NCBI GenBank assembly: GCA_965113315.1
Contig: OZ220366.1
DNA from: Podarcis vaucheri
Lineage: Eukaryota
Strand: one strand, 5' to 3'
DNA length: 64,000 nucleotides
A program made the translations under genes and the position numbers. A model generated the notes under the pieces. The model made no database searches, was not told the origin of the DNA, and worked only from the letters and a program-made list of their open reading frames with translations. This document shows, in pieces, positions 6,991-62,165 of this stretch (positions are counted from its first letter, which is position 1; each line of letters begins with the position of its first letter).

Positions 6991-7231
6991 CAGTGGTACC
7001 TCGGGTTACATACGCTTCAGGTTACATACGCTTCAGGTTACAGACTCCGCTAACCCAGAAATAGTACCTTGGGTTAAGAACTTTGCTTCAGGATAAAAAC
7101 AGAAATTGTGCTCTGGCAGCACGGTGGCAGCAGGAGGCCCCATTAGCTAAAGTGGTCTTCAGGTTAAGAACAGTTTCAGGTTAAGAACAGACCTCCAGAA
7201 CGAATTAAGTACTTAACCCAAGGTACCACTG
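6991..7231 (+). mobile_element. Tigger/pogo-type MITE (family A, copy 1)
   Basis: TIR cagtggtacctcgggtta...ttaacccaaggtaccactg, TA on the left, internal 16-bp repeats ggttacatacgcttca. Near-identical to copies at 22992, 61533 and 61924. Confidence 0.92.
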
Positions 7232-8296: not shown

Positions 8297-8652
8297 GGGA
8301 TGAGGGTGGCGCTGTGGGTTAAACCACAGAGCCTAGGACTTGCCGATCAGAAGGTTGGTGGTTTGAATCCCTGTGACGGGGTGAGCTCCCGTTGTTGGGT
8401 CCCAGCTCCTGCCAACCTAGCAGTTCAAAAGCACAAAGTGCAGGTAGATAAATAGGTACCACTCCAGCGGGAAGGTAAACGGCGTTTCCGTGTGCTGCTC
8501 TGGTTCGCCAGAAGCAGCTTGGTCATGCTGGCCACATGACCCGGAAGCTGTCTGCGGACAAACGCCGGCTCCCTCGGCCAATAAAGCGAGATGAGCGCCA
8601 CAACCCCAGAGTTGGTCACAACTGGACCTAATGGTTGGGGGTCCCTTTACCT
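8297..8652 (+). mobile_element. Sauria SINE, full length
   Basis: Head gggatgagggtggcgctgtgggttaaaccacagagcctagg, body and (ACCTTT)-type tail. TSD tatgaggagttta at 8284-8296 and 8653-8665. Confidence 0.93.
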
Positions 8653-8931
8653 TATGAGGAGTTTAGGATGTCTCCTTGATGCCTTGAAGGACACATTGGC
8701 AATAAGACTGGTACCAGGGGAACAAAACCTCATAGTGGGAAATCTCCTTTCATATTAAGTCATGTGAAACTTTACTCATGTCATGATCTACAGTAATAAA
8801 CCATGAAAAATGCTCAGATTGACACACAACCAAGCCAAGCCAAATGATTATATGCTCCCTAATTTATTCTTTGCCATGCCCCCATCCCCAGCAGCCATGT
8901 TATGTTACATCATGCCCCCAGAGAATGTAAC

Positions 8932-22991: not shown

Positions 22992-23233
22992 CAGTGGTAC
23001 CTCGGGTTACAGACGCTTCAGGTTACAGATGCTTCAGGTTACAGACTCTGCTAACCCAGAAATAGTACCTCAGGTTAAGAACTTTGCTTCAGGATGGGAA
23101 CAGAAATCGCACAGCAGCGGTGTGGCTGCAGCGAGAGGCCCCATTAGCTAAAGTGGTGCTTCGGGTTAAGAATAGCTTCAGGTTAAGAACGGACTTCCAG
23201 AACGAATTAAGTTCTTAACCCGAGGTACCACTG
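22992..23233 (+). mobile_element. Tigger/pogo-type MITE (family A, copy 2)
   Basis: TA|cagtggtacctcgggtta...taacccgaggtaccactg|TA. Confidence 0.93.
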
Positions 23234-46519: not shown

Positions 46520-47544
46520 CATAGAATCATAGAGTTGGAAACACCATCAGAGCACTCCTGACACATGGTTGTCAAGCCTCTGCTTAAAGGCCTCCAAAGA
46601 AGGAAACTCCACCACACTCCTTGGCAGCAAATTCCACTGTCGAACAGCTCTTACTGTCAGGAAGTTCTTCCTAATGTTTAGGTGGAATTTTCTTTCTTGT
46701 AGTTTGGATCCATTGCTCCGTGTCCACTTCTCTGGAGCAGCAGAAAACAACTTTTCTCCCTCCTCTATGTGACATCCTTTTATATATTTGAACATGGCTA
46801 TCATATCACCCCTTAACCTCCTCTTCTCCAGGCTAAACATGCCCAGCTCCCTTAGCCGTTCCTCTTAAGGCATCGTTTCCAGGCCTTTGACCATTTTGGT
46901 TGCCCTCCTCTGGACACGTTCCAGTTTGTCAGTGTCCTTCTTGAATTGTGGTGCCCAGAACTGGACACAGTACTCCAGGTGAGGTCTGACCAGAGCAGAA
47001 TACAGTGGCACTATTACTTCCCTTGATCTAGATGCTATACTCCTATTGGTGCAGCCCGGAATTGCATTGGCTTTTTTAGCTGCCGCGTCACACTGTTGGC
47101 TCATGTCAAGTTTGTGGTCAACCAAGACTCCTAGATCCTTTTCACATGTACTGCTCTCAAGCCAGGTGTCACCCATCTTGTATTTGTGCCTCTCATTTTT
47201 TTTGCCCAAGTGCAATACTTTACATTTCTCCCTGTTAAAGTTCATCTTGTTTGTTTTGGCCCAGTTCTCTAATCTGTCAAGGTTGTTTTGAAGTGTGATC
47301 CTGTCCTCTGGGGTGTTAGCCACCCCTCCCAGTTTGGTGTCATCTGCAAATTTGATCAGGATGCCCTTGAGCCCATCATCCAAGTCGTTGATAAAGATGT
47401 TGAATAAGACTGGGCCCAAGACAGAACCCTGTGGCACCCCACTAGTCACTCTTCTCCAGGATGAAGAGGAACCATTGATGAGCACCCTTTGGGTTCGGTC
47501 AGTCAGCCAGTTACAAATCCACTGAGTGGTAGCATAGTCAAGAC
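46520..47544 (-). mobile_element. CR1 LINE, 5'-truncated, with RT pseudogene
   Basis: ORF 46865..47485 has [21 protein letters not shown]...KFADDTKL and continues in frame into 46547..46840 after one nonsense codon. Tail ttccaactctatgattctatg. Confidence 0.96.
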
Positions 47545-48022
47545 TTTATTGCAGCATAAACCTCTTTTTTCAGCTAGTATTATCTAGCCTTGGGGCTGAT
47601 GCTTGCTTTTCAATTTCATGTTACCACTGTCTGTTTGCTGCATCATTTTGAGTTAAAAATTTAAAAAGGTTAAATCTAAACTATATACAGAAAATGATAT
47701 ATGTTACACTAGATAACTAGTGTAATAGCACCAGTTACATATCTGCAGTTTAAACCCACTGCTGTACTTGATTGAAGCACCAATAACAGCAATATAATGG
47801 TATACATTGTTACTCTTCATTCTGTAGGATTAGGGTCAACTTTATCATCATCATCATCATCTAAACAAGTGGGCTTATTGTCTCATATCTTTAACAATGT
47901 GCATTTGACAGTGGAAATATAAGCTTTATTTATAATCCCTTAGCAAGTGAGATGTCACATTATGAAGTTTATGCAGTTCAGAGAACTAGACATCTACTGA
48001 TAAGACCTAGCAGGTTTGTACC

Positions 48023-51400: not shown

Positions 51401-51619
51401 CAGTGTAGCTGCAAAGAGGGAATTGGAAAGTTTTGTTTGGCAGATGCAATAAACTACAGCTAATTGGGCTTTTTTCAACAAAACATAGTTAGGATCAACC
51501 ATAGTTTGTCAGGGGTTTTCTATCATGACAAGCTATAGTCATATAGGTCCTTATAATATCAGTGGAAACAGTTGGTCTTGGCAAGTATTAACCATTTCCA
51601 ATTTTAACCTGAAGATTGC

Positions 51620-51786
51620 CACTTGTCCAGTTTTAGTTTTAATTTTAATGGTTTGAATTAATTGTGGGATGTATCTTAATTGATTGATCGCTTGTATTAT
51701 GCATATCATCTTATTTATATGATGTTAGCCGCTCTGAGCCTGGCTTTGACCGGGGACGGTGGGATACAAATTATTATTATTATTAT
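51620..51786 (+). mobile_element. L2 3' UTR fragment
   Basis: gatgttagccgctctgagcctggctttgaccggggacggtgggatacaaa plus (TTA)n. Similar to 30190-30250. Confidence 0.7.
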
Positions 51787-52004
51787 CAATTCTAAAATGA
51801 AAAGCTTCTGAACTCTTCCTTGCAGCTATGCCAGAGGAGAAGAGGGAAGTGCACAGCTTGTTTTTGTAATGTTTCTGTAAACCATGGTTCAGGTCCAAAT
51901 GAGGACATCATAATTTACTGTACAGTGAATAGCAAGTACCACTCACTCATACTTGTTGAGAGCTATTATCTTATTCTCTAGTGTTGTTTTTTAAACTGCA
52001 GATA

Positions 52005-54320
52005 CAGTGGTGCCTCGCAAGACGAAATTAATTCGTTCCGCGAGTTTTTTCGCCTAGCGAATTTTTCGTCTTGCGAAGCACGAAATCCCATAGGAATGCA
52101 TTGAAATTCAATTAATGCGTTCCTATGGTCAAAAAAAGTCCAAACAAAGCCAAATTTGGTACAACAAGAGTTTATTAAGTGCTCTTTAAAGTCACACATA
52201 CTGTAAAGAGCATTTCAAAAACTGAAGGAACAGTAAATTAAGTTTCTAAACATGACAGAAAAACATTTAAAAATCAACAAAGTGTACAGTACGTTTTCTA
52301 AGACTCTGGGGGACCACTCAAAGAAGGTTCCTCTTCCACTCTTTGCTTCTTGCTGAAGAACCTGTCCATGGTCTGCTGCTTCATCCGCCTTTTCAGCACC
52401 TCCCTGAAAGGCAACATGACCCTCGTATCAAAAGTGTTCACAAGGTCATGTGCCACGTGCTTGTCAGGGTGGTGTCGCTGTGCAAAAGCCTGCACATCCT
52501 TCCACTTCAGGCAAATGTCTCTCAGTTCTTTGGAGGACAGCTGTTCTTCAGTTGCTTCCTCCTCTTCCAGTGAGGCCTGCTCCTGCGCAGCCTCTGCCTG
52601 CAGTTCGACCAGCTCCTGGGTGGTCAGCTCGTGGTCATGCTCCTCCACCAGCTCGCTGATGTCCTCCTCTGTGACCTCCAGGCTCATGGTCCTCCCCAAG
52701 GCAACAATGTCCTGCACCACTGTTGACTCTGGTGCATCAGAGTCACTTGGTGCCACACAGTCCGGCCACAGGCTGCGCCAAGCGCAATTCAAATTTCTCT
52801 GGCTGATCCTGTTCCAGGCCGTGGTGATCATCTTCAAGCAGGTGACGATGTCGAAGTGGTCCTTCCAGAATTCCTGCAGGGTGATGGTGGTGCAATCAGT
52901 CACCTCGAAGCATCGCCTGAAAAGCTCCTTGGCGATGACCTGCTGATCCATCGGCTGGAGCAGTGGCATGGTGTTAGGCGGCAGGAACATGATTCTGATG
53001 AAGCTGAACTCCTCCAACAAGTCCAACTCAAGGCCTTTAGGATGAGCAGGAGCATTGTCCATCAGAAGCAAAGCCTTCAGCGGCAGGTCGTTGTCCAGCA
53101 GGTACTGTTTGACAGCAGGGCCAAAAGCAAGATTGACCCAGTCCACAAACAGCACACGTGTGACCCAAGCCTTACTGTTGGATCGCCACATGACACTCAG
53201 CTGCTCCTTGTCGACCTTGTGTTTCTTGAAGGCCTGTGGGTTCTCCGAGTGGTACACAGCAGGGCCTTGATCTTCAGGTTGCCGCTTGCGTTGGCACAGA
53301 AGAGCAGGGTCAGACGGTCCTTCATGGGCTTGTGGCCAGGCAACTTGGCCTCCTCCTGTGTGATGAAAGTCCTTTTGGGCATCCTCTTCCAAAACAGCCC
53401 GGTCTCGTCGCAGTTGAAGACCTGCTGTGGAACGTAGCCCTCCGTCTTCACAGCCTCCAGGAACTCTGCTGCAAAGTCTTCAGCCGCAGGAACATCAGAA
53501 CTGGCAGCCTCTCCATGCCTGACCACGCTGTGGATTCCAGATCTTGCCTTGAACCGGTCAAACCAACCTCTGCTTGCCTTGAAGACTTCTGGCTCGCCTG
53601 AGGTTCCTGGCTGTTCCCAGACGAGGTCTGCGTGCAAGGCCTTGGCCTTCTCACAAATGATGGCCTCAGTCACTGTGTCCCCTGCACACTACTTCTCTTC
53701 TAACCAGATGAGCAGCAACTTCTCGACCTCCTCCAGAACAGCTGGGCAGTTCTTCACGATCCTGGTGACTCCCTTGGCTGCATCAGTCGCAAGGATCTTC
53801 TCCCTCATCTTCAGGATGGTCCCGATGGTTGATGGGTTCCTGCCGTACTCCCTGGCGAGGTCTGTCACACGCATTCCACCGTCGTGCTTCCGGATGATCT
53901 CCTTCTTCATTTCCAGCGTCACCTTCTCCTTCTTCTTCTTGCCGGCCTCTGCAGCAGCAGTCTTCTTGGGTCCCATGGCAGCACAGCTCCTACCTTCGCA
54001 AACTCCAAAAAAAAAAAAAAATAGAATCAGTGCTTCACATCCAAAAAATTCAAAAGCACCCAGCCACCCACCACACAGAAATTCAAACCCAGAACCAAGT
54101 CCTTGAATTCCAAACACCCAACCCAAAATCCAAAACCCCCAAAAATAAGTTTTAAAAGTTTAACTTACCAAATGGCTGCAAAAGAAGTTTTGGAAAAGCT
54201 TCAAAAATCACCAAAGTCTCCCAAAACCTCAACTGTTCCCCCAGCCACCCACCCACCACACAGAAATTGCAAACCCCTCCCCAACTGTTGCAAACCCCTC
54301 CCCAACTGTTCCCCCAGCCA
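52005..54320 (-). mobile_element. Tigger (pogo family) DNA transposon: 3' TIR, transposase and part of the 5' region
   Basis: TA|cagtggtgcctcgcaagacgaa TIR at 52005, minus-strand AATAAA at 52171-52176, and the transposase remnant. Ends abruptly at 54320. Confidence 0.95.
52298..53976 (-). pseudogene. Tigger transposase pseudogene (CENP-B-type HTH domains plus DDE_1, DD36D)
   Basis: MGPKK...TLEMKKEII...LAREYGRNPSTIGTIL; FKASRGWFDRFK; VFNCDETGLFWK; LLMDNAPAH; LQPMDQQVI. Lesions: TAG at 53689-53691, a 1-nt frameshift at ~53257, and a probable short in-frame deletion after DQQVIA. Strong Kozak GCCATGG. Confidence 0.95.
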
Positions 54321-54334
54321 GCCACCCGCATCCC
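54321..54334 (-). mobile_element. Detached 5' head of the Sauria SINE whose body starts at 55700
   Basis: Minus strand gggatgcgggtggc matches the SINE start gggatgagggtggc at 8297-8310 (13/14). Confidence 0.75.
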
Positions 54335-55019
54335 TGTGGATTCCTATAGATGGAATTTTAATCTACCAAATTCCACCCCCTGTCCCAACACTCTGAATGC
54401 TTACAGGTTTCTGGGCCTGTCTTACTAAAACATTTTGCTTAATTTCTTAATATTTACTACTGTGTGGTGTGGTGTTAGTAATCTACCTAGAAGAAATGCT
54501 GAAGACAAAGAACAGTTTGGACCATAACTAAGGTAGCAAATCCATACGGACCTTTATGTCATGGAAGTGAAAAACTCATAGCTTTTTTCATGGTCTACAC
54601 AGAATGCGTGCTGAGTGTGCATAGAAAGAGACAGACTTACTGGATGGACATAGAAGTTATCTTAGGGAATTGTGTTTTTGTTTTTTAACAAGTCTCTTGC
54701 TTTAAAACTGGGAGGTGAGAATAACACTCCTGAATTAGAATAGAGCTGTAACCGTTTAAAACGTTGTGTTCATTCTTATAGCTTCAAGATTTTGTGGTCT
54801 GTTTTTAATTAATAGTATTACTAATGTTGAGAGTAGTAGTATCTGTTTAGGCACTAGTTGGCTAAAGAGATAACAAATGAAATGTTCTAGATTCATTATA
54901 AAGAATTTAAGCAACTATAAACAACTGCTGGGTTTTTTTGAGCTCTTTTGCTCTTGTTTTTTAAAATAAATCTCCAGCATTTATTTTAGTATTGAACATA
55001 ATATTAAGAGTTTTTAGTA

Positions 55020-55700
55020 CAGTGGTGCCCCTCAAGACGAATGCCTCGCAAGACGAAAAACTCGCTAGACGAAAGGGTTTTGCGATTTTTGAGTTGCTTC
55101 GCAAGATGAATTTCCCTATGGGCTTGCTTCGCAAGACGAAAACGTCTTGCAAGTTTGTTTCCTTTTTCTTAAAACCGTTAATACCCAGGGTGCATTGTTT
55201 GAAGAGGTGCAGTTACGACTTGAGGAGCAACTCATAGCACCTTCGAGCAACTTCGAGGAGCAACTCATAGCACGCGGTGTGGTAGCCTTTTTTGAGGTTT
55301 TTGAAGACTTTGTTGATTTTTGAAGCTTTTCCAAAACTTCTTTTGCAGCCATTTGGTAAGTTAAACTTTTAAAACTTTTTTGGGGGTTTTTGGATTTTGG
55401 GTTGGGGTGTTTGGAATTCAAGGACTTGGTGTTGGGGAGGGGTTTGCAAGAATCTGGAGGCTTGTGTGGTTTTTTCTGCATTTTTATGATTTTTGGTGTC
55501 CATTGGGCCACTCTGCTGTTTTTTTAAAAAAAAAATCTGGGTTTGAATTTCTGTGTGGTGGGTGGCTGGGGGAACAGTTGAGGAGGGGTTTGCAAGAATC
55601 TGGGAGCTTGTGTGGTTTTTTTCTGCATTTTTATGATTTTCTGTGACCATTGTGCCATGTTGTTGTTTTTTTAAAAAAAAATTCTGGATTTGAATTTCTG
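55020..55700 (+). mobile_element. 5' TIR and 5' region of the same Tigger, in inverted orientation
   Basis: TA|cagtggtgcccctcaagacgaa TIR. 55292-55430 is the reverse complement of 54094-54232. Contains a ~146-bp tandem repeat (units starting 55431 and 55577). Confidence 0.9.
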
Positions 55701-55870
55701 AGCCTAGGACTTGCCAATCAGAAGGTCGGCAGTTTGAATCCCCACAACGGGGTGAGCTCCCATTGCTCGGTCCCTGCTCCTGCCAACCTAGCAATTCGAA
55801 AGCACGTCAAAGATCAAGTAGCTAAATAGGTACCACTCCAGCGGGGAGGTAAATGGCGTTTCTGTGCGCT
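55700..55870 (+). mobile_element. Sauria SINE body lacking head and tail
   Basis: gagcctaggacttgccaatcagaaggtcggcagtttgaatcc...gtaaatggcgtttctgtgcgct aligns to 8329-8500. Confidence 0.9.
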
Positions 55871-57598
55871 GTTTCTCTGGCTCACTGAATAGGAGCTTTA
55901 AGTTTATCTTTGAACGTACCCTCCCCCCAATGGATGCAACATAAACATTTACAGAATTGCACGGCCATTTTTAATGCATTTTATTGACACAGGCATGCAC
56001 TCACACACCCAGGAAAGTCTGATTCAATTCCAAATGGCTTTACACCAAATCCTCAAAAATACAGAATGTTGGTTGAAGTCCTACAGTTGCAGCAGGTCAC
56101 AAACTGGGCCTAAGTTAAGATTATTTGCAAAATCCACTTTAAAAGTTCATGTGTGGTGGTTTCATCATGTGTAACACAGCTGCGTGAACGTGCCTAAGTG
56201 TGCTGTCTCTTTCCCTTTTTAATGCATTTAGGCTTGCACATAAAGCAAAACACTCATGCAGTATGTGCAATCTAAAGTCACAGTTGCAAAATGTATTCTG
56301 CAATTCCTTTGACATTAAGCAGCCTACCTAACTAAAACAAGCTGTTGTTCCTAGTGTTTTGATCAACTGGAAGATGTCCAATTAACTAAATGAGAGTGGA
56401 CTAAAAGTACAGAACAACAAGAACTTCTTATTTTTATTATTTTTAGTCCATTGTTTTACTATGTGATGCTGGTGATGTACTATGAAAGTAACATAAAAAC
56501 TGTTGGTTAAACAGATGAAGTGCATAGATGGCAACTCCTTTGGCTCTAGATACAATCTTTACATCTGGATGTCAGGCAGGACATAGATGAGCTATTAGTC
56601 AAGTCCTTCAGATGATTTCCATAGAATGAAAGGAAAAGGTCTTAGGTAGCCTTATTAAGAAACTTCAGAGTTTACCTTGTTAGTGTCTGCTATAAAGCAA
56701 TGTAAATAATATGCTTTGAAAACCAGCTAAAGATAAATGATTGAAGAGCTTTTTAAAGTTCTCTTTGTACCTCACCCCTCATAACAAGGAACAGCTGTTC
56801 AAACCAGGCATCAAAAACAGCTCTCTAGCTCAGATTTAACAATGCCAAGACACAGCTGTAATTGAAAGAGAGATGGATGGTTAGTGCTGAAGAAGATGGA
56901 AATTTACCAGAATGGATGGTGTTTAAATGTGTTCTTTTAAAAAGCTAATGAATAGGGAGATTTCTGCTGACAGAAAGCAAAATATAACAGTATAAAACAT
57001 GGATATTGATACAAAAGCTATCCTCAAACAGTTGATAATTGTGTCTGTTTATTTAAGCATAGGTGTATTTATGATAGGGTCAAAATCCTATTTGAGAACT
57101 GTACCCGAGTTAACTATGCTGCCCAACAATGCCAAAAAGTATTATTGCATCCGAGCAATTCATGCAAAACATATTTTGCCCGGGGATTGGTATATTTATT
57201 TGCAATATTTTTATCACCCAAACAAGAAGAGGGGATGATGCAGTTGCAAGGAGGAGCTCAAAACCTTTTGCTTTCATGATAGATGAACTGTAGTTTATAT
57301 TCAAGTCTAAATCTGGACAAACTGTGGTTAATCTTAAATACGGTTTGTTGAAACAAGCCAATGTCAATCCCTACGTTATAAAGCTGGTTTGTTTCAGGCC
57401 AGAGGGAGGAGGAAGAGTCGGGGCAGTCCCACCTTCTTCCCAGCACACGACCCAAGGCAGCTCACAGCATAAATTAAATTAGGTCTTTTGTGTCCTGTAG
57501 TTCCCCCTGTTGAAGAACTTGGCTTAGAGGAAAGCTGTGCACCTTGCAAAGCACCATGCTGGTGGGATCCCACCCAACCACCATTTTAATTTCCTGCC

Positions 57599-61353: not shown

Positions 61354-61532
61354 TATAACGGCAAACTAGCACATCTTTGGGGGAACACTGGCTGCTTATT
61401 TACAAAATCAAATAGCTTCCACTTGATGAAAATAAATATTCCAAATAACAAATCATTTTGTTTAGATTTAGCAATTGTCCAGCTAAAATACAAGGCTGAA
61501 TACTGGGGGTTGAATGTTGCGTCTTACCTATA

Positions 61533-61758
61533 CAATGGTACCTTGGGTTACAGACTCTTCAGGTTACAGACTCCGCTAACCTGGAAGTAGTACCTCAGGT
61601 TAAGAACTTTACCTCAGGATGAGAACAGAAATTGTGTGGTGGTGGCATGGCGGCAGCGGGAGGCCCCATTACCTAAAGTGGTACCTCAGGTTAATAACAG
61701 TTTCAGGTTAAGAACAGACCTCCAGAACGAATTAAGTTCTTAACCTGAGGTACCACTG
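61533..61758 (+). mobile_element. Tigger/pogo-type MITE (family A, copy 3)
   Basis: TA|caatggtaccttgggtta...taacctgaggtaccactg|TA, with one fewer 16-bp internal unit. Confidence 0.92.
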
Positions 61759-61923: not shown

Positions 61924-62165
61924 CAGTGGTACCTCGGGTTACATATGCTTCAGGTTACATACGCTTCAGGTTACACACTCTGCTAACCCAGGAATAGTGC
62001 TTTAGGTTAAGAACTTTGCTTCAGGATAAGAACAGAAATCGGGCTCCAGCGGCGCGGCAGCAGCAGGAGGCCCCATTAGCTAAAGTGGTGCTTCAGGTTA
62101 AGAACAGTTTCAGGTCAAGAACGGACCTCCAAAATGAATTAAGTACTTAACCTGAGGTACCACTG
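61924..62165 (+). mobile_element. Tigger/pogo-type MITE (family A, copy 4)
   Basis: TA|cagtggtacctcgggtta...taacctgaggtaccactg|TA. Confidence 0.93.

Follow-up and report, generated by a model that had tools for sequence, protein, structure and literature searches.

A 1.4-kb inversion that splits a Tigger DNA transposon and a SINE in the genome of Podarcis vaucheri

Kilobase-scale non-homologous inversions are a known class, and the closest described examples are human. In the study of human polymorphic inversions by Giner-Delgado et al. (2019, PMC6748972), inversions of unique origin that span 83 bp to 415 kb, and whose ancestral state is read from relatives, include ones that lack long inverted repeats at their breaks and carry small deletions on the derived allele; 18 of the 45 inversions studied bear this small-indel signature and may be single FoSTeS/MMBIR events. 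Pettersson et al. (2020, PMC7702065) deal with cytogenetically visible inversions, with NHEJ/MMEJ-like features at 17 of 25 resolved junctions, and include a clinical case, inv(6)(p11q13) of P2468_115, that has deletions of 2 and 15 nt and microhomology of 3 and 6 nt and was assigned to MMEJ. A replicative route is offered by the 1-3-2-4 type of Loytynoja and Goldman (2017, PMC5453318), in which the order 1<3<2<4 yields a pure inversion and creates no repeat; in that paper, 45% of short template switches are pure inversions of this kind, and the model is built for short-range events, long-range switches being excluded by its authors. Both routes, template switch and end joining, are listed in a review (PMC4576756).

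The locus described here belongs to this class. Within a window of 64,000 nucleotides of P. vaucheri DNA (the whole stretch analysed), positions 54321–55700 almost certainly represent an inversion of 1.37–1.38 kb that breaks a Tigger DNA transposon at one end and a SINE at the other (Table 1). It resembles the human polymorphic inversions in that its breakpoints lack long inverted repeats (overlaps of at most 6–7 nt on the left and 1 nt on the right), in its small deletions on the derived allele, its ancestral state read from relatives and its size. Unlike these, it is non-mammalian, each break interrupts a transposable element of a different class, so that the two elements act as markers, and it is described from an assembly and four runs, one of which shows the left junction, instead of from genotyped populations. 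The losses of 3 and 18 nt and the overlaps of 1 and 6 nt that we infer at the lizard locus are close to the values for P2468_115, an inversion of cytogenetically visible size as opposed to 1.4 kb. The geometry of the lizard inversion is that of the 1-3-2-4 type. We found no comparable published case of such a locus in a narrow literature search, which is not proof of absence.

Table 1. Features of the inverted locus, in positions of the 64,000-nucleotide window
Feature	Position	Strand	Remarks
TA target-site copy, Tigger 3' end	52003..52004	.	single TA at X2 empty site
Tigger 3' part, not inverted: 3' TIR (52005–52026), transposase gene, end of 5' tandem-repeat region	52005..54326	-	
Broken pogo/Tigger transposase: CENP-B_N, HTH_Tnp_Tc5, DDE_1	52298..53976	-	all three above Pfam cut-offs
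Left junction GGTGGC, likely microhomology common to SINE head and Tigger repeat unit	54321..54326	-	
Reversed 14-nt SINE head	54321..54334	-	
Inverted single-copy spacer, 683 bp, formerly between Tigger 5' end and SINE	54335..55017	-	depth 10–53, like unique flank; X2 contig
Second TA target-site copy, displaced by the inversion	55018..55019	.	
Tigger 5' 681 bp, inverted: 5' TIR, subterminal repeats, ~147-bp tandem units	55020..55700	+	
Right junction, one G common to Tigger and SINE	55700..55700	+	
Headless SINE body, also 3'-truncated	55700..55880	+	84.5–86.2% identical to two paralogs in window

The rearranged structure is visible in both elements. As a first-pass annotation of this DNA had pointed out, both TIRs of the Tigger, at 52005 and 55020, read TA followed by CAGTGGTGCC on the plus strand. 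In a search of the same genome with the Tigger 5' piece, in which 40 of 2555 candidates were scored and the 20 best non-self loci fetched, clean TA-flanked inverted TIRs were present at both ends in 16 of the 20 copies; one of the other four has no 3' part in the fetched stretch, and in three an end was misplaced by our script. Flipping 54321–55700 rejoins the SINE head to the SINE body and yields a single TA-flanked pogo/Tigger element of 3001 bp, both TAs included, in which 22 of 24 terminal positions match, again with TA counted. This flipped allele aligns in one piece to seven of 19 other genomic Tigger copies at 90.5–93.4% identity, the remaining 12 having internal deletions, insertions or extra repeat units relative to it, and the two Tigger halves are complementary to within 9 bp. 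The annotation's reading of a ~3.0-kb TA-flanked element missing about 9 bp, and of a reversed SINE head matched by a headless body, is thus borne out. Its inverted interval of 54321–55700 needs a small adjustment: the inversion itself holds, and the left break is ambiguous over 54321–54327, where six letters (54321–54326) are common to the Tigger 3' part and the SINE head, so that the inverted piece measures 1373–1380 bp.

Each junction word is unique in the 1.6-Gb genome and lies at this locus. The SINE head is therefore not part of the Tigger family sequence, nor is the joint a product of chance, and the earlier concern that a Tigger consensus might itself contain the SINE head is likewise dispelled by the genomic copies. 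Where the letters at derived non-CpG positions are compared, both Tigger halves agree mostly with one and the same copy, L025 (6 and 9 letters), followed by L032, L035 and L036 with 11 shared letters each; in a tree of 13 copies the window's element groups with L025, L032 and L035, with support of only 82/92. The rearrangement is a reversal relative to the ancestral allele: the flipped allele is colinear with intact Tiggers, and in a contig from another run (X2) the spacer runs into the left flank with the two on opposite strands.

The element, probably a Tigger, as the first-pass annotation named it, encodes a transposase in which 36 residues separate the second and third catalytic Asp. The reading frame is broken by a stop at 53689–53691, where eight of nine compared copies have a sense codon (the position was not located in one), and by a 1-nt frameshift near 53256. 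The annotation had stressed that the inversion separated the transposase from its 5' end; the separation is real, and it probably changed nothing, because the gene also carries this premature stop and frameshift. In TA duplication, TIRs of ~22 bp, length of ~3.0 kb and pogo-type domains the element agrees with the Tigger family of pogo (PMC9219625), in which squamate Tiggers range from 2336 to 3988 bp; unlike the Tiggers published there, the window's copy is split and its ORF broken. Intact copies contain a 145-bp repeat as a direct internal duplication, and the number of tandem units varies among copies. At this locus the 145-bp repeats (54088–54232 and 55292–55436, 94% identity, 1059 bp apart) have been turned by the inversion from a direct into an inverted pair, and a second flip between them is predicted to return the TIRs to inverted orientation.

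Several other features of the family came to light among the fetched copies. Most differ by 1.5–3.4% from the majority sequence, as in a young family, and L037 (G000:C10:120477000-120480800) has an ATG-initiated ORF of 566 codons, the longest among 20 sequences checked. Six copies (L021, L031, L040, L041, L042 and L043) are internally deleted, with deletions that start in the tandem-unit region (~650–730), a region toward which the choice of query biases the set of such derivatives. One deletion is common to L040 and L042, which suggests a non-autonomous subfamily.

The SINE, probably a Sauria element, has lost 18 nt between head and body, the length that the annotation had estimated: two paralogous SINEs at 8329 and 14157 of the window carry these 18 nt before GAGCCTAGG. 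The break presumably runs through the A box of the internal promoter. The lost bases coincide with a hairpin with a 6-bp stem, as they would in five of 340 such SINE windows, and the same 18-nt skip is rare in the genome, with three matches against 20,089 intact sequences. Deletions across the hairpin number 50 against 27 at a control position in five fully listed contigs, a weak comparison of raw counts in which the control catches slightly shorter deletions. Deletions of at least 11 nt across the hairpin occur in other copies of the SINE (210 matches, a figure inflated by one amplified array), and one such match, among the matches listed, reads GCTG directly followed by AGCC. The paralog at ~8297–8656 ends in ACCTT, as in an (ACCTTT)n-type tail, and its 15-bp target duplication has T as its first letter. 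These features and the very high copy number of the family agree with the Sauria SINE (PMC13295347); unlike the element described there, the window's broken copy has no 3' end.

Other SINE copies offered observations of their own. L044 and L046 have no head hairpin; in its place stands a short second copy of the G-rich word that precedes it, which suggests slippage at this site. At least 50 copies that share one small deletion lie in G000:C25:5835294-7799726, mostly 9–40 kb apart, with 29 on the plus strand followed by 21 on the minus strand among the matches listed; they mark a large, recently amplified segmental array in two opposed blocks, possibly a gene cluster. The 3' truncation of the window's SINE at 55880 appears older than the Tigger insertion, contigs of runs X2 and X5 being colinear with the window over ~55856–56500.

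Four of 24 runs (X1, X2, X5 and X15) were compared with the window as contigs, and the left junction is present in one of them. X15, which may be the source sample, shows 0 differences from the window in 1717 letters, and its contig covering 54291–55044 carries the left junction at full depth (39.4, compared with 36.7–43.5 in the flanks), also with 0 differences; the short side of this contig extends 30–36 letters left of the junction, which is borderline by a 31-letter rule. The right junction is bridged by none of the listed contigs and is taken from the assembly itself. The X2 run (organism B) contains a 776-bp contig that joins 54493–55016 (plus strand) to 52005–51770 (minus strand) and represents an empty site: the TA is single, no footprint is present, and the spacer has the flipped orientation. 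Hence there was one Tigger insertion, although the empty site could possibly have arisen by precise excision of a Tigger in the X2 lineage. In X1 (organism A) and X5 (labelled as X15 is), contigs enter the 5' TIR, to 55038 and 55040, which places the Tigger in these runs as well. At their other ends these contigs run 23 and 8 letters left of 54322/54321, past the SINE head, with letters that do not fit the window; a SINE continuation would match the window at only eight of the 23 letters there. X1 and X5 are thus likely uninverted, with an intact SINE beyond the head, as judged from this misfit and not from the letters themselves. Three allelic states of the locus are seen in these runs: empty (X2), likely Tigger-intact (X1 and X5) and inverted (X15 and the window). 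At window position 54750, inside the inverted spacer, X1, X2 and X5 have 13 extra letters that are absent from the window and X15, a deletion in the window's lineage.

These states point to the order SINE, then Tigger, then inversion, in line with the annotation's view that the event is younger than both elements. The X2 and X5 contigs begin inside the SINE body. Over single-copy flank, counted without three pieces at 51543–51756 (a repeated stretch) and without any Tigger pieces, X1 differs from the window at 10 of 1421 letters, X5 at 17 of 1366 and X2 at 25 of 1598. Of 2964 positions in the window's Tigger copy, 23 (0.78%) carry private substitutions, which fits an insertion around the split from the X2 haplotype, and the inversion would be younger than the split from X1, at 0.7% flank divergence. 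X1 is closer to the window than X5 despite their labels, which suggests a polymorphism within one species.

At base level the two junctions differ. In intact Tigger copies nine letters, mostly TGTGGTGGG, stand between GAATTTCTG and TGGCTGGGGG; a unit ending in GGTGGC is found in three of 19 copies, with eight exact genomic matches for the GGTGGC-type variant against 299 for the common form. The nearest copy, L025, has the variant, but in an earlier repeat unit rather than the last, and so does L032. On the sequence evidence, a perfect 6-nt left overlap with the SINE head, which was likely used, would require this rare variant in the ancestor; from the common form, the left junction would match at 5 of 6 letters, or over 7 nt accompanied by a 4-nt TGGC duplication. 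Microhomology of at least 6 nt is expected in 0.17% of random Tigger–SINE joins, and an overlap of 1 nt, such as the G at the right junction, arises in 43% by chance. The motif gggtggc that the annotation saw at both breakpoints accordingly stands as possible microhomology on the left only, the right sharing 1 nt. Its account of small losses is sound, with one correction: the G at 55700 is common to both elements, and the loss is ~28 bp rather than 27, to which the Tigger contributes ~3 nt, the SINE 18 nt and each overlap one of its two copies, as judged against paralogs rather than an ortholog and provided that no whole tandem unit was lost. Neither templated insertion nor copy-number gain was seen at the junctions, the TGGC duplication being possible only from a common-form ancestor. 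The Tigger break lies 0–1 nt from windows with a G4Hunter score of at least 1.5 in three close copies; 12–15% of the Tigger is within 15 nt of a G4 window. The observed left junction has one match in the genome, this locus, and other joins of SINE head to Tigger unit (by the 7-nt match) and the reciprocal junction have 0 each, so that no recurrent class is in evidence.

The annotation had left two routes, end joining after two breaks or a template switch, and the sequence of one allele cannot separate them, since the junctions fit both equally well. We lean slightly toward a microhomology-primed template switch and return, FoSTeS/MMBIR-like and of the four-point type 1-3-2-4. On this model, the SINE would have been in place first, a Tigger of opposite orientation would then have landed on a TA 683 bp upstream of it, and the inversion would have come afterwards. 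Because the two elements faced opposite ways, their shared GGTGGC would form a 6-nt inverted microhomology able to prime one switch, the other taking place via a single G; the growing strand would switch to the opposite strand and later back, within one replication accident, at a fork that may have stalled at the G-rich Tigger repeat and the SINE-head hairpin. One stalled fork is all that this requires, whereas end joining, in which double-strand breaks ~1.4 kb apart in the Tigger and the SINE would undergo resection and be rejoined the other way round, by the microhomology-mediated or the classical pathway, calls for two nearly simultaneous breaks within 1.4 kb. Against the template switch stands the absence of templated insertions or duplications, the clearest marks of replication, which makes a two-switch event less probable without excluding it; the 1-3-2-4 model was designed for short-range events, a perfect 6-nt match needs the rare Tigger variant, and the arguments from structure (hairpin and G4) are weak, having been made after the fact. 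The same overlaps of 6 and 1 nt, the small deletions and the lack of insertion or duplication suit end joining, and a human inversion with a near-identical signature has been called MMEJ in a study where most resolved junctions are also NHEJ/MMEJ-like (PMC7702065); this precedent, however, is one of cytogenetically visible inversions, and the SINE loss coincides with a hairpin. We regard end joining as a real but less than even prospect.

The remaining explanations are far less probable. The event could have been assembled in several steps, with part of the SINE hairpin or at least one 147-bp Tigger unit lost earlier and the inversion occurring separately, possibly with CTG as a longer right-junction microhomology; other SINE copies do have hairpin deletions of at least 11 nt and tandem-unit number does vary, yet the exact 18-nt skip is rare, and the X1 and X5 contigs end just past the junction as expected if they enter a common intact SINE there (as inferred from breaks in the assembly graph), so that we consider a multi-step origin very unlikely. 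Two further possibilities, an alternative or aberrant transposition driven by the Tigger transposase and recombination between inverted repeats, might be entertained at a DNA transposon with 145-bp inverted repeats and a relative, L037, that keeps a long ORF. Both are rejected, as highly improbable, because neither break coincides with a TIR or falls within a long repeat: the distances to the TIRs are 681 and ~2320 bp and both junctions lack a TA, as the annotation had argued against alternative transposition, and the 145-bp repeats, direct in intact copies and with neither break inside them, are a result of the inversion rather than a cause by NAHR. Twin-priming of the SINE was also set aside, as single-copy DNA and half a Tigger are part of what was inverted. 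An assembly artefact, or two independent Tigger insertions, is the reading to which we give next to no credence. Both breaks do fall within high-copy repeats, and no listed contig bridges the right junction, which leaves the annotation's concern about assembly answered for the left side, where an independently assembled short-read contig (X15) carries the junction at full depth; two insertions are refuted by the one TA at the orthologous empty site, by halves complementary within 9 bp and by diagnostic letters of the same subfamily.

The surroundings of the locus are rich in other repeats. Pfam scans of the 24 ORFs that lie outside the Tigger and the SINEs, among 35 listed of at least 110 aa, found no host exon and only one reverse-transcriptase fragment (46868–47545, minus strand; RVT_1, E 3e-17), probably a LINE remnant; scans of 115 of the 118 ORFs of 55–109 aa from 36000 onward likewise found no host exon. 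Short exons would escape such scans, and the locus may lie in an intron. MITEs of ~240 bp from a second family, TA-flanked and with CAGTGGTACC ends, lie at 6991–7231, 22992–23233, 61924–62165 and ~61530–61758, and a 44-nt inverted pair (84% identity), probably of another repeat family, flanks the whole region at 51467–51510 and 57316–57359.

Taken alone, the finding means little: the inversion is small, lies in repeat DNA, is one more of an ordinary kind and broke two elements that were probably inactive, and it gives no indication of function. A wider idea, that SINE-head hairpins and G-rich Tigger units are fragile sites that seed template switches between unrelated repeats throughout the genome, is improbable; if it were true, this locus, of which the empty, intact and inverted alleles all survive, would offer a type case that can be dated. 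Short-read callers tend to miss inversions in repeat-rich genomes, and elements split in this way could allow them to be counted there. The locus may also serve as a lineage marker, and it is a clean teaching case, in which the ancestral state can be read to the base from two broken elements and the order of events from three allelic states.
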